A stretch of DNA of 64,000 bases from contig CAZBFO010000003.1 of assembly GCA_964491475.1 (NCBI GenBank), forward strand, positions 72,766-136,765. The letters are read 5' to 3'. Both the position numbers and the translations under genes were made by a program. Position 1 is the stretch's first letter. The number at the start of each line of letters is the position of its first letter. Of the stretch, positions 8,376 to 47,264 are shown in pieces. The notes beneath the pieces were generated by a model. It saw nothing but the letters and a program-made list of their open reading frames with translations. It had not been told where the DNA came from and did no database searches. Source of the DNA: an uncultured Gammaproteobacteria bacterium. GTDB lineage: Bacteria > Patescibacteriota > Patescibacteriia > SG8-24.

Positions 8376-9182
8376 ATGAAAAACATCGCAATAATGGGGG
8401 TTGGCTGGGTTGGCGGTACTTTGGCTCGCTACTTCGAAGAGCAGCCTAATCTGACGGTTTTCCGCTACGATCCGCCAAAAGGGTTGGGGCAGCTGCCAGA
8501 TTTGGCGCAGGCCGACGTCATCTTCATCTGCCTGCCTACGCCATACGACGAGGCAGCGGGCGGCTTTGACCTCTCTTACGTGCGCGAGGGCGTGGCGTCG
8601 ATTCCGGGCGAGAAGCTGGTGGTCATCAAGTCGACCGTGCTGCCCGGCACCACCGAGGCGCTGCAAAAGGAGTTCCCGCGGCACCGTTTTTTGTTCAGCC
8701 CCGAATTCCTGCGACAGGCGCATGCCGATCAGGATTTCCGTTCGCCCGACCGGCAAATCGTCGGCGTCACTGCCGCCAGCATCGTCGATGCGGCCAAGGT
8801 GATGGCCGTCCTTCCGGACGCGCCGTTTCAAAAGATCGTCGGCGCCACCGAGGCGGAGACCGTCAAGTACTTCGGCAACTGCTTCCTGGCGATGAAGGTG
8901 GTGTTCGCCAACCAGGTGTTCGACGTTTGCCGGGAACTGGGCATCGATTACGACACTGTCCGCGAATGCGCTTCGGCCGATTCGCGCATCGGCGACAGCC
9001 ATCTGCAGATCATGCACGACGGCAAACGCGGCTATGCCGGAAGCTGTTTTCCCAAGGACATGCGGGCCTTCATTCAGCTGGGGGACCGGCTCGACGTCGA
9101 CTTGGCGCTGCTGAAGGCCGCCGAGAAACTGAATCAGGAAATCCTCGCCCGCAATCCGGCCAAGGAGAGGCAGGCTCAATGA
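8376..9182 (+). CDS. UDP-glucose/GDP-mannose dehydrogenase-family protein, short form lacking the C-terminal UDP-binding domain
   Basis: MKNIAIMGVGWVGG Rossmann start. The central domain carries ...FLAMKVVFANQVFDVCRELGIDYDTVRECASADSRIG...YAGSCFPKDMRAF, matching the UDPGDH catalytic-Cys region. The stop TGA at 9180-9182 overlaps the downstream ATG (ATGA), so no C-terminal domain is encoded. Confidence 0.6.
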   Translation: MKNIAIMGVGWVGGTLARYFEEQPNLTVFRYDPPKGLGQLPDLAQADVIFICLPTPYDEAAGGFDLSYVREGVASIPGEKLVVIKSTVLPGTTEALQKEFPRHRFLFSPEFLRQAHADQDFRSPDRQIVGVTAASIVDAAKVMAVLPDAPFQKIVGATEAETVKYFGNCFLAMKVVFANQVFDVCRELGIDYDTVRECASADSRIGDSHLQIMHDGKRGYAGSCFPKDMRAFIQLGDRLDVDLALLKAAEKLNQEILARNPAKERQAQ

Positions 9183-11290
9183 AGCTGATGCGGGTGACAC
9201 TGGCTTTCATGCGAAGAATCCCGAGAACAACTCGTCTCGCACGCGTCATCGCGCTGGCGTTCTGTGCCTGCGCCGTTTTGGCGTCGCCTGCGCTGGCAGC
9301 CGCGGCGACAACGACAACGCTGCCCCCAGGTCGCCTTCCCGACGACACCTACTTTTCCAAACAGTGGAACCTCACCAAGATCCGCGCGCCCGAAGCCTGG
9401 CAGACCAGCCTCGGCTTCGAGGGCGTGACCATCGCCATCATCGACAGCGGCGTGGACATCGATCATCCGGACCTCAAGGACAACGTCTGGCGCAACCTCA
9501 AGGAGATTCCCGACAACGGCATCGATGACGATCGCGACGGCTACGTCGACGACGTTCACGGCTGGGACTTCGTGGGCAACGACAACGACCCGCGTCCGGA
9601 CATCAGCGGCGGTTACAGCGTCATCGGCGCCAATCACGGCACCGTCGATGCCGGCGTCGCCGCGGCCCGCGGCGGCAACGGCAAAGGCATCGCCGGCGTG
9701 GCCTGGCAGGCCACCATCATGCCGATTCGCGTGCTCGACTCGAACGGCGTCGGCAAGCCCGAAGACGTGGTCCGCGCGGTCCAGTACGCCGTCGACAACG
9801 GCGCCAAGATCATCAACTTGAGCCTGTCGGGACCGTCGTACAATCCGGCGCTGTCCGCCGCGTTGCGGCGCGCCTATGACCAGGGCGTGTTCGTGGTGGC
9901 CGCCACCGGCAACGCGCCGGACGGGGGAGAGGCGGTCGACCTCGACAAGAGCCCCCTGTATCCGGTCTGTTTTGACAGCGGTTCGGACGAGAACTTCGTC
10001 TACGGCGTTGCGGCGGTCGACGAAAACGACGTCCGAGCCGGCTTTTCCAACTTCGGCGCAGCCTGCGCCGACATCAGCGCGCCGGGAACGCGCATCATCT
10101 CGACCCAGTTCCGCCTGCCCGACAACAAGAACTTCGTCGACGCTTACGGCGGCTTTTATAACGGTACTTCGGTCGCCGCCGCGGAAGTCTCGGGCGTGGT
10201 GGCGCTCATCCGCGCGCTCGACTACGACCTCACGCCCAAGCAGATCATGAACATCCTGACCGAGACGTCGGTCAAGATCGACAAGCAGAACCCCAAGTAC
10301 TTCGGCAAACTCGGTCGCGGCCGCATCGACGCGGCGGCGGCCGTTGCCCGCACCCTGGAACTCATCCATAAGCAGGAAGCGCCGCCGGTGCCGACGGCTT
10401 CGCTGCTTCCTCCGGGCACCCGTCGCATCATCGTGACGGCGCCCGGAAAGGGACGCGCGCCCGAAATCCGCATGTTCACCGACGACGGGACGTTCATCCG
10501 GGCGTTTCCGGCCTTCAGTGCGCCGTTCAGGGGGGGCGTGAGCTTGGCCATGGCCAACATCGGCGGCGTTTCTCGTAACGCCATCGTGGCGGGAGCCATG
10601 ATGGGCGGGGCACCGTTGGTGCGCGTGTTCGACATCAACAGCCGCCTGATCGACACCTTCGCCGCCTACGACGCGTCCTTCGGCGGCGGCGTGAGCGTCG
10701 CGGCCGCAGACATCGACGGCGACGGCAGGGACGAGATCATTACCGGCGCGGGTCCGGGCGGCGGTCCGCACGTCCGGATTTTCACCCCCAACGGCACGCC
10801 CGTCGGCGGATTTTTCGCCTTCGACGCGCAGTCGCGATCCGGCGTGAACGTCGTCGCGGCCGACTTGGATGGCGACGGCAAAGCGGAAATCATCGCCTAC
10901 CGACCGAACGGCGAAGGCATCAAGGTGTTCAGCGCCAAGGGCGAACTGCGCTCGTCGGTCGCCACGCCAAAGCACATCACCGGCGTTTTCATCGCCGACG
11001 CGAACGGCGACGGCAAGTCCGATTTCGTGGCCAGTTTTGCCGCGGCAAGGGGAGTTCCGGCGTATCGGGCGTTCGGCTTCGAAGGCTTTTTGGCCGACTA
11101 CGCCGCCGACGGCAAGCCAGTCGACCCGTCCGGTCTCGTGAAGACGCCTCTGCGCAACCTGCTTCTGGGCAGCGGCTCCAAGTCGCCGCCGGCCGTGACA
11201 GTGGCGGGGCTCCGCGGCATGCCGTTGCGGTTCTCTGCCTACGAGCCGTCGTTCCGTGGGGGAGTCAGCGCGGCGTTCGCTTCGCCGTAA
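9179..11290 (+). CDS. Secreted subtilisin-like serine peptidase (S8) with C-terminal FG-GAP/VCBS-type repeats
   Basis: Signal peptide MKLMRVTLAFMRRIPRTTRLARVIALAFCACAVLASPALA. Catalytic triad motifs IIDSGVD, HGTVDAG, GTSVAAAEVSG. C-terminal repeats DIDGDGRDEIITGAGPGGGPHVRIF and DLDGDGKAEII. The 8927 start in the ORF track is an antisense-overlap extension. Confidence 0.8.
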   Translation: MKLMRVTLAFMRRIPRTTRLARVIALAFCACAVLASPALAAAATTTTLPPGRLPDDTYFSKQWNLTKIRAPEAWQTSLGFEGVTIAIIDSGVDIDHPDLKDNVWRNLKEIPDNGIDDDRDGYVDDVHGWDFVGNDNDPRPDISGGYSVIGANHGTVDAGVAAARGGNGKGIAGVAWQATIMPIRVLDSNGVGKPEDVVRAVQYAVDNGAKIINLSLSGPSYNPALSAALRRAYDQGVFVVAATGNAPDGGEAVDLDKSPLYPVCFDSGSDENFVYGVAAVDENDVRAGFSNFGAACADISAPGTRIISTQFRLPDNKNFVDAYGGFYNGTSVAAAEVSGVVALIRALDYDLTPKQIMNILTETSVKIDKQNPKYFGKLGRGRIDAAAAVARTLELIHKQEAPPVPTASLLPPGTRRIIVTAPGKGRAPEIRMFTDDGTFIRAFPAFSAPFRGGVSLAMANIGGVSRNAIVAGAMMGGAPLVRVFDINSRLIDTFAAYDASFGGGVSVAAADIDGDGRDEIITGAGPGGGPHVRIFTPNGTPVGGFFAFDAQSRSGVNVVAADLDGDGKAEIIAYRPNGEGIKVFSAKGELRSSVATPKHITGVFIADANGDGKSDFVASFAAARGVPAYRAFGFEGFLADYAADGKPVDPSGLVKTPLRNLLLGSGSKSPPAVTVAGLRGMPLRFSAYEPSFRGGVSAAFASP

Positions 11291-11300
11291 TCCTGCGCCC

Positions 11301-11726
11301 ATGTTTGACGCCCTGCACCGCTACTATCGCCATCTGCGCGGCTTCATGACCGGCCAGTTCTTGCGATTCGCGGTAGTCGGTGCCTCGAACACGGCTCTCG
11401 ATTTCTTCGCCTACTTGGCGCTGACGCGCGGCTGGCCGTGGTGGAGGACGCACTTGGTGCTTGCGGCGACCGTGTCGTTTTGCGTGGCGGCTTCTTCCAG
11501 CTTCCTGCTCAATAACTTCTGGACTTTCGGACGCACCGGCGACGGCTGGCACCGGCGGGCGCCGAAGTTCTTCGCCGTGGCCGTGGGCGGTCTTGCCTGG
11601 AATGCGCTCATCCTGCACCTGCTGACCGCTGCAGGGATGCACGACATCTTGGCCAAGCTGCTGGCGACTGCGGCGGTGATGGTCTGGAACTTCACCTTGC
11701 AGCGGGCCTGGACCTTCCGGTCGTGA
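11301..11726 (+). CDS. GtrA-family membrane protein (polyprenol-linked sugar flippase-like)
   Basis: About 140 aa with 4 TM helices. FLRFAVVGASNTALDFFAYLAL and WNFTLQRAWTF motifs typical of the GtrA family. Confidence 0.7.
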   Translation: MFDALHRYYRHLRGFMTGQFLRFAVVGASNTALDFFAYLALTRGWPWWRTHLVLAATVSFCVAASSSFLLNNFWTFGRTGDGWHRRAPKFFAVAVGGLAWNALILHLLTAAGMHDILAKLLATAAVMVWNFTLQRAWTFRS

Positions 11727-11787: not shown

Positions 11788-12807
11788 ATGAGCAACCTTC
11801 CCCCCATCTTCGGAAAACGCAACGTCCTGGTCACCGGCGGCGCCGGTTTCATCGGCACCTTCCTCTGCGAGCGCCTGCTCAAGGAAGAATGCCGCGTGAT
11901 TTGCATGGACAACTTCGCCACCTCGCGACCGGAGAACATCGCGCATCTTCTCAAGAGCCCCGACTTCGAGTTTATCAGGCACGACGTCAACGAGCCGTTC
12001 AGCCTGGAGGACTATCCGGAACTGGCTCTGTTCAACCTCAAGCTGCAGGGCGTTCAGGAAATCTACCACCTGGCCTGTCCCCGGACCGGTCGCCGCTTCG
12101 ACCAGTTCCAGCTGCAGACGCTGCTGACCAACTCGGTCGGCCTGCACAACGTTCTCGAGGTGGCCGTGAAGTGGAAGTCCAAGTTCTTCCTGGCGTCGAG
12201 CGCCGTGGTGTACGGGCCGCGCCCGTTCGACGGGCACCTCCTCAAGGAGGGGGAATACGGCACTTTCGGACATCTCGAAACCAACAGCTGCTACGACCAA
12301 GGCAAGCAGTGGGCGGAGACGATGGTGGACACTTACCGCCAAGTCCACGGCATCGACGTGCGCATCGGCCGCATCTTCCGCACCTTCGGGCCGCGCATGC
12401 CCCTCGATGACGGCCACCTGATTCCGGACTTCATCCAGAACGCCATGGACGGAAGGGACATCGTGGTGTTCGGTCCCGATCTGCGCAGTTCGTTCCTGTA
12501 CGTCACCGACTGCGTCGACGCCGTCGTGCGCATGATGCAGACGGTCAAGGACCCCGGACCGGTGAACATCGGCAGCGACTACGACCTGCGCATCTCCGAC
12601 GTCGCCAAGCTGATCATCGAGCTGACCGGATCGACCTCGCATATCCTCAACGATCAGCCCCCGTACTACATGGCCCAGCACGGCCTTCCCGACCTGACCA
12701 AGGTGCGCGAAGAGCTGGGCTGGATTCCGATTATGACCTTCGAACAGGGCTTGCGCCGCACTATCGAGTACACGGTCGCCAACCGCGGCCTCATCAAAGA
12801 GCTGTAA
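11788..12807 (+). CDS. UXS-family NAD-dependent sugar-nucleotide decarboxylase/epimerase (UDP-glucuronate decarboxylase-like), paralog 1
   Basis: VLVTGGAGFIG, CYDQGKQWAETM and RIGRIFRTFGPRM align closely with UDP-xylose synthases. The TSE motif position reads SSAVVYG, so the Glu is not conserved. Confidence 0.8.
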   Translation: MSNLPPIFGKRNVLVTGGAGFIGTFLCERLLKEECRVICMDNFATSRPENIAHLLKSPDFEFIRHDVNEPFSLEDYPELALFNLKLQGVQEIYHLACPRTGRRFDQFQLQTLLTNSVGLHNVLEVAVKWKSKFFLASSAVVYGPRPFDGHLLKEGEYGTFGHLETNSCYDQGKQWAETMVDTYRQVHGIDVRIGRIFRTFGPRMPLDDGHLIPDFIQNAMDGRDIVVFGPDLRSSFLYVTDCVDAVVRMMQTVKDPGPVNIGSDYDLRISDVAKLIIELTGSTSHILNDQPPYYMAQHGLPDLTKVREELGWIPIMTFEQGLRRTIEYTVANRGLIKEL

Positions 12808-12879
12808 ACGGCCAAAATGCCCTTATTTTAGGGCATTTTTGCGTAATTCCGGCGTCTTCCCTATACTGAAGCAGTACCT

Positions 12880-13905
12880 ATGCCTGCTAAACCCATCTTC
12901 GAAAAACCGAACGTCCTGGTCACCGGCGGCGCCGGCTTCATCGGCTCATTCCTTTGCGAAAAGCTTCTCGCCGACAGCCGCGTGGTCTGCGTCGACAACT
13001 TTTCGACGTCGCAGCAGACCAACATCGACCACCTGCTGAAGAATCCCGACTTCGAGTTCATCCGTGCCGACTTCAACGAGCCGGTCGACTTCGGCAACCT
13101 GCCGGAGCTGGAGCGTTTCCAGTTCAAGTTCCAGGGATTCCAGGAGATTTACCACATGGCTTGCCCGACCTCGGCCAAGAAGTTCGAGGAATTGCGCCAC
13201 CAGACGCTCTTGGCCAACTCTGTCGGCATGCGTAACGCGCTCGACCTCGCCGTGGCCAACAAGGCCAAGATTTTCTTCGCTTCCTCCAGCGTGGTGTACG
13301 GCAAGCGTCCTCCCGACGCGCACTTGCTCAAGGAAGAGGAATACGGCAACTACGACCACCTCACGCCGCGCAGCTGCTACGACGAAGGCAAGCGCTGGGG
13401 TGAGACCATGTGCTACACCTACAAGCAGGTCCATAATATCGACGTGCGCATCGGCCGCATCTTCCGTACTTTCGGACCGCGCATGCTCCTGAACGACGGC
13501 CAGATGGTTCCCGACTTCATCCAGAACGCCCTCGACGGTCGCGACCTGACCATCTACGGCGACGAGTCGTTCCGCTCGTCGTTCGTCTACGTCTCCGACG
13601 TGGTCGACGCGATCATGCGCCTGATGCGCCTGCCCAGGGATCCCGGCATCGTCAACATCGGCAGCGACTACGACATCCGCCTGGTCGACGTCGGCAAGAA
13701 AATCATCGAGATGACCGGCTCCACTTCGAAAATCAAGTTCGAGGCGCCGCTGCTGTTCATGTCCGAGCTGGCGTTGCCCGATCTGACCCGCGCCAAGGAC
13801 GATCTCGGCTGGCTGCCGCTGGTCTCGCTCGAGACCGGCCTCAAGCGCTCCATCGAATACACCGTGGCTCATCGCGGCCTGCTGCGCCCGTCGCTGGACA
13901 AGTAG
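12880..13905 (+). CDS. UXS-family NAD-dependent sugar-nucleotide decarboxylase/epimerase, paralog 2 (tandem duplicate)
   Basis: VLVTGGAGFIGSFLCEKL, SCYDEGKRWGETMCYTYKQ and RIGRIFRTFGPRMLLNDG are near-identical in motif order to human and bacterial UXS. The TSE position reads SSSVVYG. Confidence 0.8.
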   Translation: MPAKPIFEKPNVLVTGGAGFIGSFLCEKLLADSRVVCVDNFSTSQQTNIDHLLKNPDFEFIRADFNEPVDFGNLPELERFQFKFQGFQEIYHMACPTSAKKFEELRHQTLLANSVGMRNALDLAVANKAKIFFASSSVVYGKRPPDAHLLKEEEYGNYDHLTPRSCYDEGKRWGETMCYTYKQVHNIDVRIGRIFRTFGPRMLLNDGQMVPDFIQNALDGRDLTIYGDESFRSSFVYVSDVVDAIMRLMRLPRDPGIVNIGSDYDIRLVDVGKKIIEMTGSTSKIKFEAPLLFMSELALPDLTRAKDDLGWLPLVSLETGLKRSIEYTVAHRGLLRPSLDK

Positions 13906-13915
13906 GTCCCGCAGT

Positions 13916-14596
13916 ATGAAGATATTTGCCGTCATCCCCAACTACAACGAACGGGGGAGGATAGGCGCGGTCGTCCGCGCCCTGCTTCCGCGCGTCCACA
14001 AGGTCATCGTGGTTGACGATGGCTCTTCGGACGGCTCGGTAGACGAGGCCGTGGCCGCCGGTGCCGACGTGGTGCGGCACGTACTGAACCGCGGCCAAGG
14101 CGCCGCTCTCAAGACCGGTACGGTGCTCGCCGCCGCAGAAGGCGCCGACGTCATCGTGCACTTTGACGCCGACGGCCAGCATGACCCCGAGGCCATACCC
14201 GCGTTGACCGCGCCGATCGTCGAAGGTCGGGCCGACGTGGTGTTCGGCTCGCGCTTCCTGGGCGTGACCAGCGAGGGCATGCCGTTCTCGCGCCGCCTGC
14301 TTCTCGCCGCCGCGCGGCTGTTTTCGGCCGTGGCGTTGGGCATCCCGCGCCACGTCACCGACCCGCAGAGCGGCATGCGCGCGCTGACGCCGGCCGCCGC
14401 CGAAACCATCGACTTCATGCAGGACAGGATGGCGCACTGTTCCGAGATTCTCCGCAACGCGCATGCCTCCGAGCTGCGCTGCGTCGAGGTGCCCATCAAG
14501 GTGCGCTACACGGCCGAGACGCTGGCCAAGGGCCAGAAGGCCGCCGACGCCTTCAAGATCGTCTGGCAGCTGCTGCTCGGTTCGTTGCAGCGCTAA
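13916..14596 (+). CDS. GT2 polyprenol-phosphate glycosyltransferase (GtrB/DPM1/CsbB-like)
   Basis: MKIFAVIPNYNE...VVDDGSSDGS...DADGQHDP DxD-type GT-A motifs. About 226 aa, the typical size for bactoprenol-phosphate sugar transferases. Confidence 0.8.
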   Translation: MKIFAVIPNYNERGRIGAVVRALLPRVHKVIVVDDGSSDGSVDEAVAAGADVVRHVLNRGQGAALKTGTVLAAAEGADVIVHFDADGQHDPEAIPALTAPIVEGRADVVFGSRFLGVTSEGMPFSRRLLLAAARLFSAVALGIPRHVTDPQSGMRALTPAAAETIDFMQDRMAHCSEILRNAHASELRCVEVPIKVRYTAETLAKGQKAADAFKIVWQLLLGSLQR

Positions 14597-14607
14597 CCGA
14601 CACCGAG

Positions 14608-14955
14608 ATGCTGATTCAGGTCGTACTCGTGGTCATCTTCGCGGTGGTGCTGGCGCTCACTTGGAAGCGCGCCGGCCAGGGCACCATGTCGCGCCGCGAC
14701 GCTTTTTGGTGGAGCCTGCTGTGGATCGGCGCCGCCGTGGTGGTGCTGCGTCCCGATTTCGCCACCGCCTTCGCGAGCATGCTCGGCGTGGGCCGCGGCG
14801 TCGACGCGATCATTTATCTTTCGATCATCGCGCTGTTCGCGCTCATCTTCCGCGTCTTCCTGCGGCTGGAAAAAATCGAGCGCGACATTTCTTCGCTGGT
14901 GCGCACGATGAGCATTGCGCAAAGGACCGGGAAGCGCGACGGCGATCAGAAGTAA
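14608..14955 (+). CDS. Small membrane protein, DUF2304-like (typically encoded next to GT2 genes)
   Basis: 115 aa with 3 TM helices and a basic tail. Position and size match DUF2304 members. Confidence 0.5.
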   Translation: MLIQVVLVVIFAVVLALTWKRAGQGTMSRRDAFWWSLLWIGAAVVVLRPDFATAFASMLGVGRGVDAIIYLSIIALFALIFRVFLRLEKIERDISSLVRTMSIAQRTGKRDGDQK

Positions 14956-14965
14956 GTCACCGCGT

Positions 14966-16033
14966 ATGTCCGAACAGCGCACGAAGGTCGCGGTCATCAT
15001 CGTCACGTATAATGCGGTCCGGTTCATTCCGGACTGTTTTGGCAGTCTCGCGGGCATGAATCGCACCGGACTCGACGTGGACATCCTGGTCATAGACAAC
15101 GGTTCCAAGGATGCCAGCGTCGAGATGCTCAAGGCGTATCCGCACGCGGAGGTGATCGTGTCGCCGACCAACTTGGGGTTTGCCGGCGGCAACAACTTGG
15201 CGATGCGCATGGCGATGGATCGGGGCGCGGAGTTCGTCTACCTGCTCAACCACGATACCGAGATCACGCCTGATTTTTTGGTGAAAGCCGTCGCGGCGGC
15301 CAAGGCGGATCCCAAGGTCGGTTCGGTGCAGTCGCTGCTGCTGCTTTCGCCGAGCAAGGATCTGGTGAACAGCACCGGCAACGCCATACATTTTTTGGGA
15401 TTCGGCTACTGCCTCGACTACAAGCGCAAGGCCGACGACGTGCGCAAGCAGTACGCGGACAAGCGGCCGGAAATCGCCTACGGTTCCGGCGCCGGCGTGC
15501 TGTTCCGCTGCGAGCTGCTCAAGAAAATCGGCCTGCTCGACGAGGAACTTTTCCTGTACCACGAGGACTTGGACCTGGGTTGGCGCGTGCGGCTGGCGGG
15601 GTTCAAGAACGTCTTTATGCCCGAGTCGGTCATCTATCACAAGTACGAATTTTCGCGCAGCATTTCCAAATACTATTACATGGAGCGGAACCGCTACGTG
15701 GTGTTCCTGAAGAACCTGCGCCTTTGGTCGCTGGTCGTGCTTTTGCCGTTCATGATCTTCGCGGAGCTCGGCCTGCTGCCGGCGTCGTTCCGCAGCGGCT
15801 GGTGGAAGGAGAAGCTGCGCTCCTACGGCTACTTCTTTTTGCCATCCACCTGGAAGCGGATCGCGAACGAGCGACGCGCCATGGCCAAACTGCGCGCGGT
15901 CAGTGACCGCGAAATCGTCCGGCTGTGGTCCTCGACCATCAGCTATCAGGAGGTGGCCGGCACCTTCACCCGCTGCGTCGCCAACCCGCTGATGACGCTG
16001 ACGTGGACCGTCATCCGCAACCTCATCGTCTGA
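14966..16033 (+). CDS. GT2 glycosyltransferase (rhamnosyltransferase/WbbL-like)
   Basis: VAVIIVTYNAVRFIPDCFGSL...DNGSKD...LNHDTE GT-A motifs. Start at the internal MSEQRTKV rather than the upstream M. Confidence 0.75.
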   Translation: MSEQRTKVAVIIVTYNAVRFIPDCFGSLAGMNRTGLDVDILVIDNGSKDASVEMLKAYPHAEVIVSPTNLGFAGGNNLAMRMAMDRGAEFVYLLNHDTEITPDFLVKAVAAAKADPKVGSVQSLLLLSPSKDLVNSTGNAIHFLGFGYCLDYKRKADDVRKQYADKRPEIAYGSGAGVLFRCELLKKIGLLDEELFLYHEDLDLGWRVRLAGFKNVFMPESVIYHKYEFSRSISKYYYMERNRYVVFLKNLRLWSLVVLLPFMIFAELGLLPASFRSGWWKEKLRSYGYFFLPSTWKRIANERRAMAKLRAVSDREIVRLWSSTISYQEVAGTFTRCVANPLMTLTWTVIRNLIV

Positions 16034-16034
16034 T

Positions 16035-17192
16035 ATGGCCAAGCGCATCGCCATCGTCACGCCGGCGTTCCCGCCGTACCGCGGCGGCATCGGCACCGTG
16101 GCGGCGCAGGACGCGGCCGCGCTGGCCGCGCTCGGTTTCGAGGCGCACGTTTTCGCGCCGGCCAAAGGGGATTCGGCTGCGGCCGACGCCGCGCGTCCTT
16201 ACGCCGTGCACCGGCTCAAGCCGCTTCTGCAACTGGGTCACGGCGCATTCCTGCCGTCGCTCGGCAAACTGCTGCGCGACTACGACCTGACGATCTTGCA
16301 GTACCCGTTCTTCGGCGGTGCCGAGCCGCTGTGGCTGGCGAAGAAGCTGGGCGCGAAAGGGAAGCTGGCGATGGTCTATCACATGGACGTGGAAGGCGCG
16401 GGCGCGCTGAAGCCGTTCATCGCCGCGCATGCGCGCCTGCTGATGCCTCGCATCGTCCGCGGCGCGGACGCGGTGGTTTGCACCACCAAAGATTACTGCC
16501 TGCATGGGGCAATCGGTCCGCTGATGAAGGCGAGACCTGAACGTTTTGCCGAATTGCCGCCGTCGGTGGACGCGGCGCGTTTCGCACCCGGTCCCAAGTC
16601 GCAGGCGCTGCTGACGAAATACGGGATCGCCTCCGGCACCAAAGTCGTGACGTTCTGCGGAGGGCTCGACACGCCGCACTACTTCAAGGGCGTGCCGTCG
16701 CTGTTGGCGGCATTGGCCGACTCGCGACTGGCAGGCACGCATGCGGTGATCATCGGCGACGGCAATTTGCGCCCGACTTTCGAGGAACGCGCGCGTTCGC
16801 TGGGCATTGCCGGTCGCGTCACCTATGCCGGAAACGTTCCCGACGCCGCACTGCCCGACCATTACCGACTGGGCGACGTTTTCGCCTTTCCCTCCGTCGA
16901 CCGTTCGGAGGCGTTCGGCATCGCCGCGCTCGAAGCCGCGTCATGCGGCCTGCCGGTGGTGGCCAGCGACCTGCCGGGCGTGCGCACGGTGGTGCGCGAG
17001 GGCATTACCGGTCGGCGGGTGGCGGCCGGTTCGGTGCCGCAGCTGGCCGATGCGCTTGTCGCCGTGCTCGGCGACGAGCAGCTGCGGCAGAAGCTTGGCG
17101 CGGCCGGAGCCGCCATGGCCGCCGAGGAATATTCCCTGGAACGCCGCCCCGAACGCTGGCGCAAGATTCTCGCTGACTTCTCGCTCGCATGA
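16035..17192 (+). CDS. GT4 glycosyltransferase
   Basis: IAIVTPAFPPYRGGIG N-terminal and EAFGIAALEAASCGLPVVASDLPGVRTVV C-terminal GT-B (E-X7-E) motifs. Confidence 0.8.
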   Translation: MAKRIAIVTPAFPPYRGGIGTVAAQDAAALAALGFEAHVFAPAKGDSAAADAARPYAVHRLKPLLQLGHGAFLPSLGKLLRDYDLTILQYPFFGGAEPLWLAKKLGAKGKLAMVYHMDVEGAGALKPFIAAHARLLMPRIVRGADAVVCTTKDYCLHGAIGPLMKARPERFAELPPSVDAARFAPGPKSQALLTKYGIASGTKVVTFCGGLDTPHYFKGVPSLLAALADSRLAGTHAVIIGDGNLRPTFEERARSLGIAGRVTYAGNVPDAALPDHYRLGDVFAFPSVDRSEAFGIAALEAASCGLPVVASDLPGVRTVVREGITGRRVAAGSVPQLADALVAVLGDEQLRQKLGAAGAAMAAEEYSLERRPERWRKILADFSLA

Positions 17193-18421
17193 ACATCCTG
17201 TACGTCAGCAACTTGTACGGCGAAAACGCCCGCGGGGGAGCGGAGCGCATCGTCGAGGCGGAGGCCCGCGCCATGGCCGCTTCGGGTCATGACGTGACCG
17301 TGGCGCACGGCGTCCGTGCCGGCGAACCGCTGGGTTCCACCCATGACGGCAGGCTTCGCGTCGCCCGCTACGCGCCGCCCAACCTGTATTTTTATGCCGA
17401 CGACCACAAGCACCGGGTCTTCACGCGCCTGCTCTGGCATTTCGTGGACGTCTTCAACGGGCCGAGCGCGCGCGCCTTCGCGGAGATCCTGGAGTCGGCG
17501 CAGCCAGACGTGGTGCATACGCACAACTTGATGGGACTCGGATTCATGATTCCGGCAGCCATCCGTCGCGCCGCGCGCCGTCGCGAACGGTCGGAGCCGA
17601 TGCGGCCGCTTCGCCACGTGCACACCGTCCACGACGTGCAGCTCGTCCATCCGTCGGGGCTGCTGCTGCAGATCAAGGGCGGCACCGGGCACGAGGGGTT
17701 CCCGTTCGCCAAGCTGATGCAGGCGGCGTACGTGCGCATCATGCGCTCGCTGATGGGATCGCCCGACACCGTGATTTTCCCGTCGGCCTTCCTGCTGTCG
17801 TTCCACGACCGTCTCGGCTTCTTCGCCAATTCGCGCAAGACGGTGGTTTCCAATCCCGCCCCGGCGCCTTCCGCCGTGCCGCGCGCCGTCGCGCCGACGC
17901 CGCGCTTCCTGTTCGTCGGTCAGATCGAAAGGCACAAAGGCGTGTACGTGCTTGCCGAGGCCTGGGAGAAGGCCGGCCTTCATGCGACGCACGGCGCCAC
18001 GCTGGAGTTCGTCGGCGCCGGCACGGAAGAAAAACCGCTCAAGGAAAAATGCGCCGCCATCCCCGGCACGTCCTTCTCCGGCAAACTGACCGGCGACGAC
18101 CTGACTGCCGCGTACGATCGTTCCACGTTCCTAGTCGTGCCGTCGACCGTCATCGAGAACCAGCCGACGGTCATCCTCGAAGCCTTCAGCCGCGGCACGC
18201 CCGCGGTCGCCGCCGTCTCCGGCGGCATCCCCGAACTGGTCCGCGAAAACAAAACCGGCTTCCTGTTCGAAGCCGGCAGCGCGGCCGCCTGCGCGGCCGG
18301 GTTGCAGCGCGCGGTTGCGGCAACGGACTGGCCGTCGTTGTCGAGAGCCGCGCGCGCATGGGCTGCCGCCCACGACATGTCCTCGCACCTGAAGGCGCTT
18401 GCGGACGTGTACGGTTCGTAG
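17189..18421 (+). CDS. GT4 glycosyltransferase
   Basis: ATGA overlap with the upstream GT4. NILYVSNLYGENARGGAE N-terminal and ENQPTVILEAFSRGTPAVAAVSGGIPELV GT-B motifs. Confidence 0.8.
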   Translation: MNILYVSNLYGENARGGAERIVEAEARAMAASGHDVTVAHGVRAGEPLGSTHDGRLRVARYAPPNLYFYADDHKHRVFTRLLWHFVDVFNGPSARAFAEILESAQPDVVHTHNLMGLGFMIPAAIRRAARRRERSEPMRPLRHVHTVHDVQLVHPSGLLLQIKGGTGHEGFPFAKLMQAAYVRIMRSLMGSPDTVIFPSAFLLSFHDRLGFFANSRKTVVSNPAPAPSAVPRAVAPTPRFLFVGQIERHKGVYVLAEAWEKAGLHATHGATLEFVGAGTEEKPLKEKCAAIPGTSFSGKLTGDDLTAAYDRSTFLVVPSTVIENQPTVILEAFSRGTPAVAAVSGGIPELVRENKTGFLFEAGSAAACAAGLQRAVAATDWPSLSRAARAWAAAHDMSSHLKALADVYGS

Positions 18422-18424
18422 CGG

Positions 18425-20626
18425 CTATTTTTTCCGCACGTACTTGAAGACGTAATCCTTGTCGCCGACGCTCCATGACGCGTCGGCGTTCTTCTTGGCG
18501 GTCAGCAGGATTTCCTGCGCGTGCCACCAGTAATACGAGACGACGTAATAGGCGGTGTCGACGCCGGCAAGGTCCATGGCCTTGGTGACGGCGTCGCGCT
18601 TGCCGAGCGCCGCATTGGTGTCCAGGAAAATCTGGTACAGGGGATCTCCGGTCGGAATCGGGTAGTAGAAGATCGGCGCCGGGCGTCCGGCATCCTTCGA
18701 GGCGTAGTAGCGCGGAAAGCCGAACTCGCGCACCGCCGCCGCGGAGACGGACTGGTTGGCAAGCACCACGTACGGCGCGCCGCCGGCGTCCTTCTCGATG
18801 CCCCGCACGGCCTCGACGTCGAACGAGTTGGACGACCAGCCGCGGCTGTTCTCGTACTTGTCACGACGCGGATATGCCAGGTAGACCGAACTGGTGACCA
18901 GCGAGGCCAGCAGCAGGGCCGCCATCACGCGCACGGTCGGCACGTGCCTGCCGGCGCGCGAGAATATGGCGGCGACGGCGGTCACCGCCATAGGCGCGAT
19001 GACGAACAGCGTCAGCTCCCACAGGCGGTTGGCGTAATTGGAACGCTCGTAGGCGATCAGGAAGGGGAACTGCACCACCGACTTGAGCAGGACGTAGTTC
19101 GAGGCCAGCACCAATCCGCTTATCAGGTAGACGAATCCGGTGCGCGTGCGTCGTCGCGAGACGTACAGGCCTAGGACGGCGAGCAGCACCAGCGCCGCGT
19201 CGCGCCAGGCCTTCCAGGAGTACACGAAGTCGTACAGCGCCGAGAACTGGCGGGTGATGACCGGTGCCGCCTGCAGCGTCTCGATCAGCGAAGTCGGGGA
19301 GCGGAGCGTGTCGGTGTCGAGCGTGACGCCGGCTCCGGAATGCAGCGAGCTGACGTAGAAGGTGGCAGGCAATGCCACTGCGCCGGCCAGCGTGACGCCG
19401 AGAATGACCACGGACAGCGCCGCCTTGCGAAAGACGCCCTTGCGCCGTTCGTACCACGAGAGCAGCGTCACGAGCGTGGCAAAAACCAGCAGGGGGATGC
19501 CGGCGATGGGGTGGATGGATGCCGCGGCAGAGGCGAGCAGGAACAGGGCCAGACGGGGAAAGGCGCCTTTGGTCACCGTAGGCAGCGCCAGGAAGGCGGT
19601 CATCAGGAAGACGACGTTGGCGACGCCTTGCGGCGTGGTTGCAGCGAACGAGTCCAGCGGCAAGATGAGCAGCGACAGCGCCGCCGCCGCGCAGGCCGAC
19701 GGGCCGAAGCCGAACGCCTTGCGCAGGCTCCAGTAGGCGCAGGGAATCAGCAGCGCGAAGGCTGCCGGCACCAGCCAGGCGTCGATGGCGCTGACGCCGC
19801 CGCCCAGCAGTCGCGCGATGATCGTCACCAGCGCGTACTGGCCCAGATAGTAGGGGGGCTTGGGCGTGATGAACCCGTCGCGGAAGATGGTGGCTTCGGT
19901 GGCCCGGTGGATGAACGGGTCGAAGCCGAACCCGACCGTGTATACGGTCATGGCCACTCCGGTGGCGAGCACTGCCAGTCCCGATCCTGCAAGCAACGAC
20001 ACGCGCGGCGAAAGGCCGCCCGACGCCGCCGCCAAGGTCGCGACGGCAGCGAAGAAGAAGACTATGAAAAACATCCTGGGCACCACGTCCCAGGGCGAAC
20101 GGATGGACGTGCCGGTGGCGGCACCGGTCAGGATGGAAAATCCGTAGACGACCAGGGCGACGGCGACGCCGGTCAGGAGCGTGCCCAGGATGGCGCGGAC
20201 GATCGGTTCCGACCGCAGTTTCGGTTTTGCGGAAGCCGCGGAGGATTCCGCGGAAGAAGGCGGTGTCGTCGCCTGGAACACCTTCTTCCGGCGCTGCAGG
20301 GTCCAGGAGCAGCATGCGGCGGCCGCGAAAACGTCGATGAACAGCACCAGCGCCACGGACGACGCGTCCAGCTTGTAGAGAAAGTAGGTGGCGCTGCCCG
20401 TGGCCATCGTCAGCGCCAGAGTGCAGACCGTTCCCAGGAACGTCCTCCAGAACCGCGGCTCATCGGCAAACAGCCCTTGGCCGGCCACGAAACCGGTGCC
20501 GAGGAAAAAAAACGCCGTCAGGATCGCCCGAGCGGCAAACGGCAACGGCAAAAGCAGCGAGGCCACCGCTGCCGCTGTAATTACCAGAGAAAAGACGGTA
20601 TGCTGTAGGTGAATGCGGGCAGTCAT
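18425..20626 (-). CDS. Large polytopic membrane protein with C-terminal extracytoplasmic domain, putative GT-C-type (YfhO-like) glycosyltransferase
   Basis: Start at MTARIHLQHTVFSLVI (cat at 20624-20626). The upstream 118 codons of the track ORF are low-complexity and rejected. At least 14 predicted TM helices followed by a ~200-aa soluble C-terminal domain. The context (GtrA + GtrB-like GT2) suggests a three-component glycosylation system. Confidence 0.5.
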   Translation of the reverse strand: MTARIHLQHTVFSLVITAAAVASLLLPLPFAARAILTAFFFLGTGFVAGQGLFADEPRFWRTFLGTVCTLALTMATGSATYFLYKLDASSVALVLFIDVFAAAACCSWTLQRRKKVFQATTPPSSAESSAASAKPKLRSEPIVRAILGTLLTGVAVALVVYGFSILTGAATGTSIRSPWDVVPRMFFIVFFFAAVATLAAASGGLSPRVSLLAGSGLAVLATGVAMTVYTVGFGFDPFIHRATEATIFRDGFITPKPPYYLGQYALVTIIARLLGGGVSAIDAWLVPAAFALLIPCAYWSLRKAFGFGPSACAAAALSLLILPLDSFAATTPQGVANVVFLMTAFLALPTVTKGAFPRLALFLLASAAASIHPIAGIPLLVFATLVTLLSWYERRKGVFRKAALSVVILGVTLAGAVALPATFYVSSLHSGAGVTLDTDTLRSPTSLIETLQAAPVITRQFSALYDFVYSWKAWRDAALVLLAVLGLYVSRRRTRTGFVYLISGLVLASNYVLLKSVVQFPFLIAYERSNYANRLWELTLFVIAPMAVTAVAAIFSRAGRHVPTVRVMAALLLASLVTSSVYLAYPRRDKYENSRGWSSNSFDVEAVRGIEKDAGGAPYVVLANQSVSAAAVREFGFPRYYASKDAGRPAPIFYYPIPTGDPLYQIFLDTNAALGKRDAVTKAMDLAGVDTAYYVVSYYWWHAQEILLTAKKNADASWSVGDKDYVFKYVRKK

Positions 20627-20650: not shown

Positions 20651-21238
20651 ATGAACGAAGACGGTTGGAACCGCTCCATAGTCCTGCAGCCGAGTGACCG
20701 CCTTTTTGAGGCGGTTTTGGCGCCGCTTTTTCCCAAGTGGGTGCGTCCGAATCACCTTACGGCACTCCGTCTTTTGCTGATTCCGGTGGTCCTGTACTAT
20801 TTGGCCATCGACCGTTTTGCCGTAGGTTTGCCGTTGTTCCTGTTCGCCGCGCTGACCGACTGGTTCGACGGGGCACTGGCCAGGACCCGTCGGCAAATCA
20901 CCGAATGGGGCATCGCCTACGATCCGGTGGTCGACAAGCTGCTGATCGGCTCGGTGCTGTTCGTGGTCGTGCTCGAGCACGTCAACTTCACGCTCGGCAT
21001 GGCGCTGCTCGGCGTCGAGACCTTCATGATCGTCATGGGCTGGTATCGGCGGCTGCGGGGCAAAGTCGAACCTGCGAACGTCTGGGGCAAGATCAAGATG
21101 GTCGCCGAGGTCGTCGGATTGTCGTCGCTGCTGGTGGCGCTGGCGTGGAAGGTCGACCTGTTCGTGGACCTGTCCACGGGCACGCTGACGCTCGCGCTCA
21201 TCTTCGCCATCATCAGCATTTTTTCACGAATGTTCTGA
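20651..21238 (+). CDS. CDP-alcohol phosphatidyltransferase family protein
   Basis: DWFDGALARTRRQITEWGIAYDPVVDKL matches the D-G-x2-A-R-x8-G-x3-D-x3-D signature. Polytopic membrane protein. Confidence 0.75.
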   Translation: MNEDGWNRSIVLQPSDRLFEAVLAPLFPKWVRPNHLTALRLLLIPVVLYYLAIDRFAVGLPLFLFAALTDWFDGALARTRRQITEWGIAYDPVVDKLLIGSVLFVVVLEHVNFTLGMALLGVETFMIVMGWYRRLRGKVEPANVWGKIKMVAEVVGLSSLLVALAWKVDLFVDLSTGTLTLALIFAIISIFSRMF

Positions 21239-21244: not shown

Positions 21245-22903
21245 ATGAAATCCCTTTCCCGCCATTTGCTTCCGGTCGGCGCTTTGCTGCTCTTCGCCGG
21301 TTTTTTCGTCGCCTATTCGTTCCTGCCGATTACCGTACCGGGAAAATACAGCTCTCCTGACGAGGCGTCGAACGCCTATTTCAGCCGGCTCTACGCCACG
21401 TCGGCGATGCTGTGGACCTTCGACGAAATGACCATCCCTTCCGGCAGGCTGGTGCATCCGCGCAGCGTCCGCATCGCCGACGATTTTCTGGTGCCGGGAG
21501 GCTTTCTCGGATTACCCGTGCTTTTCGGGACGGTCGGCGAAGCGTTGGGGACGGCGGTCATGCCGTTCCTGACTCCGCTGTTCGCGCTGCTGGCGGCGTT
21601 GGCCTGGGGCGGACTGGTAGCCGGCAGGTTCGGCAGGCGATTGGGCCTGCTGGCCGGCGCGCTGCTGCTGGTGCAGCCGGCATGGTGGTATGAGGCATCG
21701 CGCACGATGCAGCCGAACGTGCTGTTCTGCAGCCTGGTCATCTTTTCCGCGTATTTCTTTTTCGCGGCGCCGCTCAAGACCATGGTCGAGAGGAAGACGA
21801 AGGAGGGCTATCGTTTCTTGCGCGTGTCCGACGCGGCGTTTGCCGGCCTGTGCATGGCGGCGGCTCTTGCCGTTCGCACTTCCGAGGCGTATTGGCTGCT
21901 GCTGGGCATCGCCGTTGCCGCATTCGCCGCGCCGCGCCGCACGCCGTGGAAGAGCCTGGTGATCTTCTTCGTTTTCGCCGCTCTCGGCTTCGCGCCGTTC
22001 CTTTTTCTCAACGCGTCGGTGTACGGCAATCCGCTGGCGACCGGCTACGGTTCCGGCGTGACGGTGATTTCCGCCGGCGTGGCCACGCAAGGTTTCGGCA
22101 ACAGGCTGCTCGGTCCGGTCGGCCCCTACCTTTTCCCGCTGGGTTTCGCGCCCCGCACGGCGCTCGCGCATTTCTGGACCTACGGCATCGCCTTCTTTTG
22201 GTGGTGGACGCTGCTGGCGGTGCTGGGCAAGTGGGCGTATCACGCGGAACGCAAGCGGTTGACCGAAGCCTTACGAGCGGACGCAAAAATCTTCTGCTTT
22301 GTCGCGGCGGCCGTCACGCTCTGGCTCATCTTCTTCTACGGCAGCTACGTCGCGCAGGACAACCCCGATCCGAACGCGGTGACCATCGGTTCTTCCTATC
22401 TGCGCTACTGGCTTCCCGTCATGGCGCTGTCGACGCTTCCTGTAGCATGGCTGCTGTCCAGCGTGGGCGAAAAGCTGGCAGCCAAGCAACGCGCGGTCGC
22501 CTTGGCCGGCGCGGTCGCGCTCATCGGCGCGGCGTCGGCCTACGCGGTGTTCTGCGGCCGCGGCGAAGGGCTGCTGTCGGTTCGCGACGCCATCAGGACG
22601 GATTCGGCGATTGCCGAGGACGTCATCAGGATGACTCCGGAAAAGTCGATCATCGTGACCGACTTCGACGACAAGTACCTGTGGCCGCAGCGCCATGTGC
22701 TGGTGCCGCTGCGCTCCGAAGTCACCTACGGCTGGCTGGGGAAGCTGCAGCAGCGGTCCGCCGGCCTGTACTACCTGGGGCTGACGCTGCCGCAAAAGGA
22801 CTTCGACTACCTGCGCGACGAGAAGCTCGCGCCGCAGAAGCTGCAGCCGGCGGTGGTGAAGACCTACGGGCAGAAGACGCTCTACGAGTTCAAGCCCTTG
22901 TAA
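21245..22903 (+). CDS. Large polytopic membrane protein, possible GT-C/PMT-like glycosyltransferase
   Basis: 552 aa, about 12 TM helices, aromatic-rich loops. Function inferred only from context. Confidence 0.5.
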   Translation: MKSLSRHLLPVGALLLFAGFFVAYSFLPITVPGKYSSPDEASNAYFSRLYATSAMLWTFDEMTIPSGRLVHPRSVRIADDFLVPGGFLGLPVLFGTVGEALGTAVMPFLTPLFALLAALAWGGLVAGRFGRRLGLLAGALLLVQPAWWYEASRTMQPNVLFCSLVIFSAYFFFAAPLKTMVERKTKEGYRFLRVSDAAFAGLCMAAALAVRTSEAYWLLLGIAVAAFAAPRRTPWKSLVIFFVFAALGFAPFLFLNASVYGNPLATGYGSGVTVISAGVATQGFGNRLLGPVGPYLFPLGFAPRTALAHFWTYGIAFFWWWTLLAVLGKWAYHAERKRLTEALRADAKIFCFVAAAVTLWLIFFYGSYVAQDNPDPNAVTIGSSYLRYWLPVMALSTLPVAWLLSSVGEKLAAKQRAVALAGAVALIGAASAYAVFCGRGEGLLSVRDAIRTDSAIAEDVIRMTPEKSIIVTDFDDKYLWPQRHVLVPLRSEVTYGWLGKLQQRSAGLYYLGLTLPQKDFDYLRDEKLAPQKLQPAVVKTYGQKTLYEFKPL

Positions 22904-25304: not shown

Positions 25305-26330
25305 ATGAAGATTCTCGTCACCGGCGGCGCCGGATTCATCGGCTCGGCATTCGTCCGCCACATGCTCAAGGAACACTCCGACGTGCAGGTGGTGAACTTT
25401 GACGCGCTCACCTACGCCGGCAACCTCGAGAACGTGGCCGAGGTCGCGCATGACCCGCGTTACTCGTTCATCAAGGGCGACATCGGCGACGCTGCTGCCG
25501 TCGAAGCCGCGCTCAAAGGCGTGGACGCCGTGGTGCACTTTGCCGCCGAGACGCACAACGACCGCAGCGTGCTCGACCCGACGATTTTTTTCCGCACCAA
25601 CGTGCTCGGCACGCAGGTTTTGCTCGAGGGCTGCCGCAAGGCCGGCAACGTCCGTTTTCACCACGTCTCCACTGACGAGGTGTTCGGCGACCTCGGTCTC
25701 GACGAGCCGCGCAGCTGGACGGAGTCGGAGCCGCGCAAGCCGCGCACGCCGTACAGCGCCTCGAAGGCAGCGAGCGATCATTTGGTTGCCGCCTACGGTC
25801 ACACCTTCGGACTGCCCGTGACCATCAGCAACTGCTGCAACAACCTCGGCCCCTACCAGTTCCCCGAGAAATTGATTCCGCTGTTCTCCACCAACGCGCT
25901 CGAGGACAAGCCGCTGCCGCTCTTCAAGAGCAGCAAGAACCGCCGCGAGTGGATTCACGCCGACGATCACAGCTCGGCCGTCGCCGCCATCTTGGAAAAG
26001 GGCCGCATCGGCGAGGCCTACAACATCGGCACCGGCGTCGAGAAGTCCATCGAGGACGTCACCGACGCGATCCTTGCGACGCTCGACAAGCCGCATTCAT
26101 TGAAGACCTACGTTCCAGATCGTCCCGGCCATGACAGGCGTTATGCGATTGATTCCACGAAATTAAGAACTGAAACCGGTTGGAAGCCGAAGATGTCCTT
26201 CGAGGAAGGCATCCGCCAGACGGTGGAGTGGTACCGCGACAACCCGCAATGGTGGCAGCGCGTGAAGACGGGGGAGTATCAGAAGTATTACGACACGTAT
26301 TATCGCGCCACTTTGGGGGCGAAGGTGTGA
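25305..26330 (+). CDS. rfbB: dTDP-glucose 4,6-dehydratase
   Basis: MKILVTGGAGFIGSAFVRHML...TYAGNLENV...SASKAASDHLV...YxxxK motifs typical of RmlB. Confidence 0.9.
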   Translation: MKILVTGGAGFIGSAFVRHMLKEHSDVQVVNFDALTYAGNLENVAEVAHDPRYSFIKGDIGDAAAVEAALKGVDAVVHFAAETHNDRSVLDPTIFFRTNVLGTQVLLEGCRKAGNVRFHHVSTDEVFGDLGLDEPRSWTESEPRKPRTPYSASKAASDHLVAAYGHTFGLPVTISNCCNNLGPYQFPEKLIPLFSTNALEDKPLPLFKSSKNRREWIHADDHSSAVAAILEKGRIGEAYNIGTGVEKSIEDVTDAILATLDKPHSLKTYVPDRPGHDRRYAIDSTKLRTETGWKPKMSFEEGIRQTVEWYRDNPQWWQRVKTGEYQKYYDTYYRATLGAKV

Positions 26331-26340
26331 TTGGCTCTAC

Positions 26341-26721: not shown

Positions 26722-26805
26722 GGAACTCCAGTGCCATTGACTTAATCATCATTTTTTGCGCCGTTTTTGATACTTTGAAACTACTGATTCGAGCCAAAAA
26801 TAACT

Positions 26806-27411: not shown

Positions 27412-27429
27412 TTTTCTGAAGCACGTCAT

Positions 27430-41189: not shown

Positions 41190-41195
41190 ACGGCG

Positions 41196-41816: not shown

Positions 41817-41823
41817 ACGGCGT

Positions 41824-43062: not shown

Positions 43063-43108
43063 AGCCTAATGGTAGCGCAAAATCCGGGTTCGGACCACGA
43101 GCCGACGT

Positions 43109-44524: not shown

Positions 44525-44527
44525 AGG

Positions 44528-45148: not shown

Positions 45149-45163
45149 AGGCTATGGGCTATT

Positions 45164-46141: not shown

Positions 46142-46148
46142 GCGGGCG

Positions 46149-47246: not shown

Positions 47247-47264
47247 AGCGCGGTGATGAGGCGT

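Follow-up and report, generated by a model that had tools for sequence, protein, structure and literature searches.

Two adjacent open reading frames (ORFs), here ORF A and ORF B, in a 64,000-nucleotide stretch of contig CAZBFO010000003.1 (the window, to which all coordinates refer) encode relatives of UDP-xylose synthase (UXS) in which the catalytic glutamate and the other residues specific to UXS have been replaced. Judged by their sequences, the two proteins belong to a clade that can best be regarded as a subfamily of UXS origin whose active site has been rewired and which is now mis-annotated as UXS. Both are predicted to be active, non-canonical UXS derivatives that feed a lipid-linked glycosylation pathway, an assignment that we regard as probable; the particular reaction that they catalyze can be proposed with much less assurance.

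Two UXS-derived proteins with a rewired active site

11788-12807, + strand: ORF A, UXS-derived A-type protein, an extended SDR (short-chain dehydrogenase/reductase), 339 aa; E 2e-57 to human UXS1
12880-13905, + strand: ORF B, UXS-derived extended SDR of the B-type (the family mainstream), 341 aa; E 5e-65 to human UXS1

Both ORFs encode full-length extended SDRs that match the Pfam models Epimerase and GDP_Man_Dehyd (E 1e-36 to 1e-42); in the NCBIfam search of the two proteins, no model reached its cut-off. The closest solved structure for both is human UXS1 (hUXS1; 38-40% identity), to which they align end to end, as a preliminary description of this DNA had held, and the next-best family among the PDB sequences scores only ~1e-24 to 1e-26. 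The AlphaFold2 (AF2) model of ORF B (pLDDT 89.6) has 2b69 as its top Foldseek match, with TM scores of 0.87/0.95 and a root mean square deviation of 1.6 A. The two copies are 61% identical and 79% similar, closer than the "roughly half identical" of the preliminary description. In an exact look-up, the ORF B sequence returned no record and that of ORF A only a short Logan contig. Against the orthologs in a related locus, L085 (dS ~0.7; labels of this kind denote the loci compared), the ratio of nonsynonymous to synonymous substitution rates (dN/dS) is 0.10 for ORF A and 0.17 for ORF B, and both genes are under purifying selection. Decay into pseudogenes was considered and rejected, given the intact ORFs, these dN/dS values and the motifs kept across the family.

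In hUXS1 numbering, which is used throughout, both proteins keep the GGAGFIG motif for binding nicotinamide adenine dinucleotide (NAD) and the redox triad Ser118/Tyr147/Lys151. The strings on which the relationship had originally been argued are for the most part where they were said to be: GGAGFIG and RIGRIFRTFGPRM are found in both proteins, LASSAVVYG in ORF A and FASSSVVYG in ORF B, but SCYDEGKRW is confined to ORF B, its counterpart in ORF A being SCYDQGKQW. The motif RIFRTFGPRM, which had been cited as UXS-like, in fact carries one of the departures from UXS, the replacement of Asn176 by Arg.

The segment A-S-T118-S119-E120-V-Y-G of hUXS1 pairs without gaps with A-S-S-A-V-V-Y-G in ORF A and A-S-S-S-V-V-Y-G in ORF B, which places Val at position 120 in both and bears out the claim that neither copy has the catalytic Glu. 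Since the flanking residues Ser117, Tyr122 and Gly123 are 100% conserved in the family and in canonical UXS alike, the register is fixed and a Glu at a shifted position is impossible; no Asp or Glu occurs within three residues of position 120 in the aligned ORFs. The residues at the diagnostic positions are as follows.

Positions: 79/84/118/119/120/144/147/151/176/277
ORF A: R F S A V N Y K R G
ORF B: T F S S V R Y K R A

The changes extend well beyond the glutamate. Arg277, the salt-bridge partner of Glu120 in UXS, has become Gly (ORF A) or Ala (ORF B); Tyr84 is replaced by Phe and Asp273 by Met in both, and Arg188 by His in ORF A and by Gln in ORF B. Arg213 is displaced by one residue, the loop 268-277 is shorter than in UXS, and a 14-residue insert, predicted to form short helices (pLDDT >90), lies between beta3 and beta4. 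Several of the substitutions at the segments that contact the sugar and the diphosphate run from polar to hydrophobic (Y84F, E120V, Q211F, D273M, K276L and K278L), and Arg125 and Asp126 are newly invariant in the family. In ORF A, Arg144 has become Asn while residue 79 is Arg; the substrate-binding arginine thus looks as if it had been relocated from 144 to 79, a compensatory change rather than a loss, reminiscent of Arg75 of Mth373, which substitutes for Arg144 (PMC12820599).

Residue frequencies were compared between the family (153 members) and canonical UXS-type sequences (56 cluster representatives).

Position 120: family Val 90%, Ile 5%, Glu 0/153; canonical Glu 56/56
Position 176: family Arg 153/153; canonical Asn 56/56
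Position 277: family Gly 92%; canonical Arg 98%
Position 84: family Phe 100%; canonical Tyr 79%, Phe 14%

The loss of the glutamate is therefore not a variation common among active UXS enzymes, as all 56 canonical representatives retain it. In hUXS1, the Glu120-Arg277 salt bridge closes the site and forces the carboxylate into an axial position, Glu120 positions the water that protonates C5, Arg277, as the loop-closing partner of Glu120, retains the 4-keto-pentose, and Thr118 and Ser119 stabilize the decarboxylation of the beta-keto acid (PMC3438964). Tyr84, Glu120, Arg144, Arg277 and Asn176 make up a signature common to UXS, ArnA and UDP-apiose/UDP-xylose synthase (UAXS) (PMC12820599, Table 3); the decarboxylase Mth373 keeps the Glu and has Lys instead of Arg277 (PMC12820599), and the 4-epimerases that act on UDP-glucuronic acid (UDP-GlcA) are without both Glu120 and Arg277 (PMC3438964). 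An altered chemistry had been proposed from the missing glutamate alone. The idea is strengthened by the disappearance of the whole UXS-specific set (Glu120, Arg277, Asn176 and Tyr84), but it stays a prediction, the hUXS1 mutants E120A and R277Q still being able to decarboxylate.

Origin of the family and duplication of the gene

Homologs with 64-92% identity are numerous and are found in metagenome-assembled genomes of Patescibacteria, Uhrbacteria and Parcubacteria, where the name given to them by the Joint Genome Institute (JGI) is "UDP-glucuronate decarboxylase"; the assignment of the clade to Patescibacteria comes from the names of these homologs. In neighbour-joining, distance-based trees, in which long-branched upstream copies may be misplaced, the proteins that have a 22-residue loop form one clade arising from canonical UXS (bootstrap 100/100). 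Glu120 and Arg277 are already gone from the basal members of this clade, in which Asn176 is still present, and Arg176 marks the crown group (bootstrap 70/100). The clade is, on this sequence evidence, a monophyletic, Patescibacteria-specific offshoot of UXS. As the Glu is absent at its base, a single loss took place long before ORF A and ORF B separated and was inherited by both copies, and not two losses, one in each copy. Nor, relative to that loss, is the duplication ancient, as had been supposed: the loss of the Glu is the older event, and ORF A is nested inside the B-type crown in the phylogeny.

ORF B is a mainstream B-type protein, a type with the signature T-F-[ST]-S-V-R-Y-K-R-G. The ORF A clade, nested within the crown group formed by this type, is small and long-branched, with about ten clusters at 90% identity, and only about 7-10 close orthologs of ORF A are known; from its placement, ORF A is apparently a younger, faster-evolving and lineage-restricted duplicate. 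A second, independent duplication has given rise to the upstream copies of L001 and L088, denoted "I79", and in both duplications it is the upstream copy that is divergent. The I79-type copies lose the aromatic residue at position 206, which we take, by analogy with GalE, to be the uracil-stacking site. Loci with a single copy exist as well (L002/L003 and L087).

The two kinds of tandem pair differ in their spacing, only 1-4 nt separating the genes in L001 and L088, whereas the following element lies between ORF A and ORF B.

12811-12842, + strand: 10-bp hairpin with a U-tract behind it, immediately past the stop codon of ORF A (AAAAUGCCCU / AGGGCAUUUU; -20.3 kcal/mol, z -2.2)

L085 has this hairpin too, with a compensatory change (CCCT/AGGG to CCCC/GGGG), and a TATACT box occurs at ~12861, between the hairpin and ORF B. 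The hairpin has the look of a terminator or an attenuator that separates ORF A from ORF B. A simple terminator scan missed it, and a sigma-70 promoter scan gave zero matches.

Among the remote members of the 22-residue-loop clade, P0134, P0137, P0139, P0142, P0144 and P0209 are without Tyr147 and/or Lys151, and P0136, P0137, P0144, P0156, P0187 and P0209 have Asp instead of Thr118; such members with an altered triad are possible pseudoenzymes or may represent a further functional shift. On the canonical side, the UXS homologs P0213, P0216 and P0254 carry insertions of ~370-460 aa directly after Asn176 (RIFN|...HN|TYGP), whose intein-like ends make them look like inteins that split the catalytic motif.

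A scan of genome contigs with a single protein had an unrelated gammaproteobacterial SDR as its sole match, and a scan of metagenome contigs with the family alignment was dominated by the generic pattern VTGGAGF[IV]G and returned mostly canonical UXS loci; among its matches only L005 was useful. The literature search found no characterized UXS-like enzyme from Patescibacteria or the candidate phyla radiation (CPR) and nothing on the clade.

A conserved locus, probably for lipid-linked glycosylation

The genes around ORF A and ORF B are listed below.

8346-9182, + strand: short dehydrogenase like UDP-glucose dehydrogenase (UGDH), 278 aa; NAD domain, central domain with the catalytic-Cys motif GSCFPKD, GxGxxG
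9179-11290, + strand: secreted subtilase (S8) with fused FG-GAP repeats; most related loci have it too, between GtrA and the UGDH-like gene
11301-11726, + strand: GtrA-family small membrane protein (PF04138, 9e-27); in every related locus it immediately precedes the UXS-like gene
13916-14596, + strand: small glycosyltransferase of family GT2, 226 aa, PpgS/GacI type (PF00535), directly downstream of the UXS-like gene(s), conserved
14608-14955, + strand: DUF2304 small membrane protein, GacJ/Rv3632 type (PF10066, 6e-24)
14966-16033, + strand: larger GT2, ~355 aa, best matches rhamnosyltransferase-like
16035-17192 and 17189-18421, + strand: two GT4 glycosyltransferases by homology, conserved in related loci
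18425-20626, - strand: 733-aa polytopic membrane protein with a predicted GT-C fold (AF2 model, pLDDT 90.7), conserved in all crown loci
20651-21238, + strand: member of the CDP-alcohol phosphatidyltransferase family, with which the conserved locus ends
21245-22903 and 22905-24455, + strand: large polytopic membrane proteins of 552 and 516 aa, no Pfam match
25305-28299 and 30214-31323, + strand: dTDP-L-rhamnose genes RmlB, RmlC and RmlD, and a sugar-1-phosphate nucleotidyltransferase with a hexapeptide C-terminus

The synteny rests on 11 loci, eight crown and three basal. In the crown loci the order is the short UGDH-like gene (where upstream DNA is present), the S8/FG-GAP gene, GtrA, one or two UXS-like genes, the small GT2 and DUF2304, followed by the larger GT2 (not in L088), the two GT4 genes, the gene for the ~730-aa membrane protein on the opposite strand and the CDP-alcohol phosphatidyltransferase gene. 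This conserved order supports the link to the adjacent glycosyltransferases that had been drawn at the outset. In the basal loci L091 and L092, the UXS-like gene has GtrA on one side and, on the other, a GalE-like epimerase, a full-length UGDH and a GT2. None of the loci compared contains a canonical UXS able to supply UDP-xylose; a 330-aa SDR in L090 was considered for that role and rejected, its T-S-E motif being absent.

The upstream dehydrogenase is indeed truncated, as had been noticed, and its short form is a conserved one: the 278-aa protein has kept the catalytic Cys and is without the entire C-terminal UDP-binding domain, and L001, L003 and L086 each have an ortholog, of 267-273 aa, in the corresponding place. 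The small GT2 has PpgS as its best NCBIfam match, full length at 2.4e-42 and below the curated cut-off (145 versus 370 bits), and is a candidate polyprenyl-phosphate sugar synthase by homology; proteins of the DUF2304 family, GacJ and Rv3632, activate the GT2 enzymes GacI and PpgS (bioRxiv 10.1101/180810). The GtrA protein is a candidate flippase for polyprenyl-phosphate-linked sugars.

Searches of Pfam, NCBIfam and the PDB sequences gave no match for the 733-aa membrane protein, and all of its 67 homologs (67/67) are annotated as hypothetical. The top nine glycosyltransferase matches of its model in Foldseek belong to AftA, STT3, AglB, ArnT and AftD, GT-C enzymes with polyprenyl-phosphate donors; the probabilities are 0.99-1.0 and the TM scores modest (0.32-0.49). 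On the strength of the model, it appears to be an unannotated, Patescibacteria-specific GT-C family and is a candidate transferase that uses a lipid-linked sugar. The 552-aa membrane protein likewise has no PDB sequence match; in L085, L086 and L087, too, comparably sized proteins are encoded after the CDP-alcohol transferase gene. The Rml genes lie 11-17 kb downstream of the UXS-like pair, and their proximity suggests that the neighbouring glycosyltransferases may build a rhamnose-containing polymer.

Taken as a whole, the locus resembles the three-component systems for lipid-linked glycosylation, here joined to a glycan cluster of the rhamnose type. The UXS-like gene or genes, lying inside it, are thereby placed to supply the donor sugar.

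Proposed reaction and alternatives

As the best overall explanation, favoured only tentatively, ORF A and ORF B would be UXS-derived C4 oxidoreductases that provide a UDP-galacturonic acid (UDP-GalA)-type epimer for polyprenyl-phosphate-linked glycosylation of the cell surface; epimerization as the specific chemistry is put forward with slightly more reserve still. According to this model, C4 of a UDP-sugar is oxidized and then re-reduced, the likeliest substrate being UDP-GlcA from the operon's dehydrogenase, as the presence of a UGDH-type gene indicates a UDP-uronic acid. The transient 4-keto intermediate would be re-reduced without decarboxylation of the UXS type, which amounts to C4 epimerization and would yield the UDP-GalA-type product, and the family-invariant Arg176 and Arg125 would hold the acid group or the diphosphate. 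The GT2/DUF2304 pair would load the product onto polyprenyl phosphate, GtrA would flip the lipid-linked sugar, and the GT-C protein would transfer the sugar onto a surface polymer, which probably contains rhamnose because the dTDP-rhamnose genes lie ~11 kb downstream. ORF A would probably be shifted in specificity or paired with ORF B. Epimerization without decarboxylation is favoured because Glu120 and Arg277 occur in every characterized decarboxylase and are absent from the UDP-GlcA 4-epimerases.

Several observations weigh against the epimerase model. Of the hUXS1 mutants, E120A continues to produce UDP-xylose at a 120-fold lower rate, and R277Q, slowed 1300-fold, goes no further than UDP-4-keto-pentose plus the reduced cofactor, NADH (PMC3438964), so the loss of residues alone cannot exclude decarboxylation. 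As no variant of UXS or UAXS is known to uncouple oxidation from decarboxylation, a UXS descendant acting on UDP-GlcA might still decarboxylate. Val at position 120 cannot form a hydrogen bond with the carboxylate as Ser128 of the UDP-GlcA 4-epimerases (UGAepi) does. In the structure of Mth373 with UDP-xylose, the equivalents of Asn176 and Arg277 touch the diphosphate; by analogy, Arg176 may be just a phosphate ligand that makes up for the loss of Arg277 and Arg188, and grip no carboxylate. The ability of the short dehydrogenase to make UDP-GlcA is uncertain, its UDP-binding domain being missing. The substitutions would make the sugar pocket more hydrophobic, which would favour a neutral or deoxy sugar over an acid, and the GalE-like 4-epimerase of the basal loci fits the classical route to UDP-arabinose through UGDH, UXS and UDP-xylose 4-epimerase (UXE).

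Both a latch-less oxidative decarboxylase of the Arn type and a neutral-sugar epimerase are plausible alternatives to the epimerase model. The former, a strong rival though one that we judge rather unlikely, would convert UDP-GlcA into UDP-4-keto-pentose or, slowly, into UDP-xylose, with the tandem copy or a GalE-like enzyme then reducing or epimerizing the product, for example to UDP-L-arabinose, in an Arn-like route to a lipid-linked pentose. It is consistent with the UXS ancestry of both ORFs, with the UGDH-type gene that is always in the operon (full-length beside the GalE-like epimerase in the basal loci), with the products of the R277Q and E120A mutants and with the failure of UXS variants ever to escape decarboxylation; Thr/Ser118 and Ser119 are retained, the logic of the operon parallels that of Ugd-ArnA-ArnC-ArnE/F-ArnT, and the pentose transferases AftA and ArnT are among the best matches of the GT-C model. 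However, the Glu120/Arg277 pair is kept in UXS, ArnA and UAXS (as Glu and Lys in Mth373) and in 98-100% of the canonical representatives, single mutations cost 120-fold to 1300-fold in kcat, and a complete, selected swap to hydrophobic or small residues argues for a changed chemistry. Moreover, the crown loci have no conserved aminotransferase or dedicated reductase, and some loci contain one copy only, without a tandem partner.

An improbable variant on the side of neutral substrates takes the two proteins as C4-epimerases or 4-oxidoreductases of a neutral UDP-sugar, such as UDP-xylose/UDP-L-arabinose, a 6-deoxyhexose or UDP-N-acetylglucosamine/UDP-N-acetylgalactosamine (UDP-GlcNAc/GalNAc), for which the carboxylate machinery would be dispensable and the dehydrogenase-like neighbour unrelated or active elsewhere. 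The six polar-to-hydrophobic changes, the shorter 268-277 loop with smaller residues, which enlarges the pocket, and the missing UDP-binding domain of the short dehydrogenase all point in this direction. So do the adjoining GT2, nearest to PpgS, which uses UDP-GalNAc from a neighbouring 4-epimerase in M. tuberculosis, and the SS[AS]V-YG motifs of ORF A and ORF B, which we take to resemble the S-S-x-x-Y-G motifs of GalE-type epimerases. Against it stand the linkage of a UGDH-type gene in basal and crown loci alike, the lack in these loci of a canonical UXS to supply UDP-xylose and the gain of two invariant arginines near the site.

The two copies need not be alike. That one of them, most likely the divergent upstream ORF A, is a non-catalytic or regulatory pseudoenzyme forming a heterodimer with an active B-type enzyme seems very improbable. 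The upstream copy is fast-evolving in both independent duplications, UXS-type SDRs are obligate dimers (PMC3438964), the hairpin between ORF A and ORF B would permit a different dosage, and within the clade both the loss of the position-206 aromatic from I79-type copies and that of Tyr147 or Lys151 from remote members offer parallels. ORF A nevertheless keeps GGAGFIG, Ser118, Tyr147 and Lys151, its arginine has apparently moved from 144 to 79, and its dN/dS of 0.10 is below that of ORF B. Doubtful, finally, is an undescribed chemistry in which the UXS scaffold and a UGDH devoid of its UDP-binding domain would form a Patescibacteria-specific route to a lipid-linked surface sugar, either by C4 epimerization of a UDP-uronic acid without decarboxylation or by a division of labour, one copy oxidizing and decarboxylating and the other carrying out a stereo-inverting reduction, that would lead to UDP-L-arabinose.

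Implications and other features of the window

Where automatic annotation has attached the label "UDP-glucuronate decarboxylase" to these proteins, the residues that define the activity are absent, and metabolic reconstructions of Patescibacteria therefore probably mis-assign a widespread gene. The family also offers a natural experiment on how SDRs choose between decarboxylation and epimerization of a labile 4-keto-uronic acid, a problem that enzymologists have approached through mutagenesis. For the Patescibacteria episymbionts, which are ultra-small and largely uncultured, the cell surface is the place of host contact, and the operon is one of few coherent leads to its chemistry.

Elsewhere in the window, a type IV pilus block (40159-49046, - strand) encodes a PilB-like ATPase (T2SSE, 7e-129), PilC (T2SSF), PilM, PilN and a weak PilO, together with prepilin-like N-termini (GFTLMEAIV), and fits a Patescibacteria origin. 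A tRNA-Lys(UUU) at 58740-58815 is confirmed by both ARAGORN and Rfam. An 84-nt tRNA-Ala(CGC) called by ARAGORN at 31806-31889 (+ strand) lies inside a minus-strand ORF with a PEGA domain; Rfam does not bear it out, and the call is probably a false positive.

Comparison with known systems

With UXS itself (human UXS1, PDB 2B69/4GLL; EC 4.1.1.35), ORF A and ORF B share the NAD motif, the Ser/Thr-Tyr-Lys triad, Ser119 and Arg144 (the last in ORF B only) and most of the UDP-binding domain. They differ from it in the lack of Glu120, Arg277, Asn176, Tyr84, Asp273 and Arg188, in the shorter 268-277 loop and in the 14-residue insert.

The UDP-GlcA 4-epimerases (BcUGAepi, MoeE5; EC 5.1.3.6) are likewise extended SDRs with the same presumed substrate and without the Glu/Arg pair of the decarboxylases. 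They belong, however, to the GalE-like branch, with E values of ~1e-18 to 1e-20 to ORF A and ORF B, and the UGAepi structures 6zl6 and 6kv9 score only 1e-13 to 1e-20. The residues of UGAepi that bind the carboxylate are an Arg and the equivalents of positions 118-120 and 176; where UGAepi has Ser at position 120, the decarboxylases have Glu. The Thr-Ser-Ser cradle is not matched in the present proteins, which read S-A-V (ORF A) and S-S-V (ORF B), with Val in the third position. Arg185 of UGAepi grips the carboxylate after rotation; near the site of the present proteins, the arginines at 176 and 125 have become invariant and are candidates for such a role, but Arg176 may bind the diphosphate instead.

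Closer in operon design is the Arn pathway with the decarboxylase domain of ArnA, which also combines a dehydrogenase, a UXS-type SDR, a polyprenyl-phosphate GT2, a small flippase-like protein and a GT-C transferase. In contrast to the present proteins, ArnA keeps Glu434 and Arg619, and the locus of ORF A and ORF B is without the aminotransferase, formyltransferase and deformylase; here GtrA replaces ArnE/F, and a DUF2304 partner is present.

Such a partner is characteristic of the GacI/GacJ/GacK/GacL and PpgS/Rv3632/Rv3779 systems, in which, as here, a small GT2, a DUF2304 activator, a flippase and a GT-C transferase decorate a cell-wall polymer. The polymer of the streptococcal group A carbohydrate contains rhamnose, and the locus of ORF A and ORF B has Rml genes nearby; in the PpgS system of M. 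tuberculosis, a neighbouring SDR 4-epimerase supplies the donor. What sets the present locus apart from both is that the sugar-supplying SDR is UXS-derived rather than GalE-derived and that GtrA stands in the place of the Wzx-type GacK.

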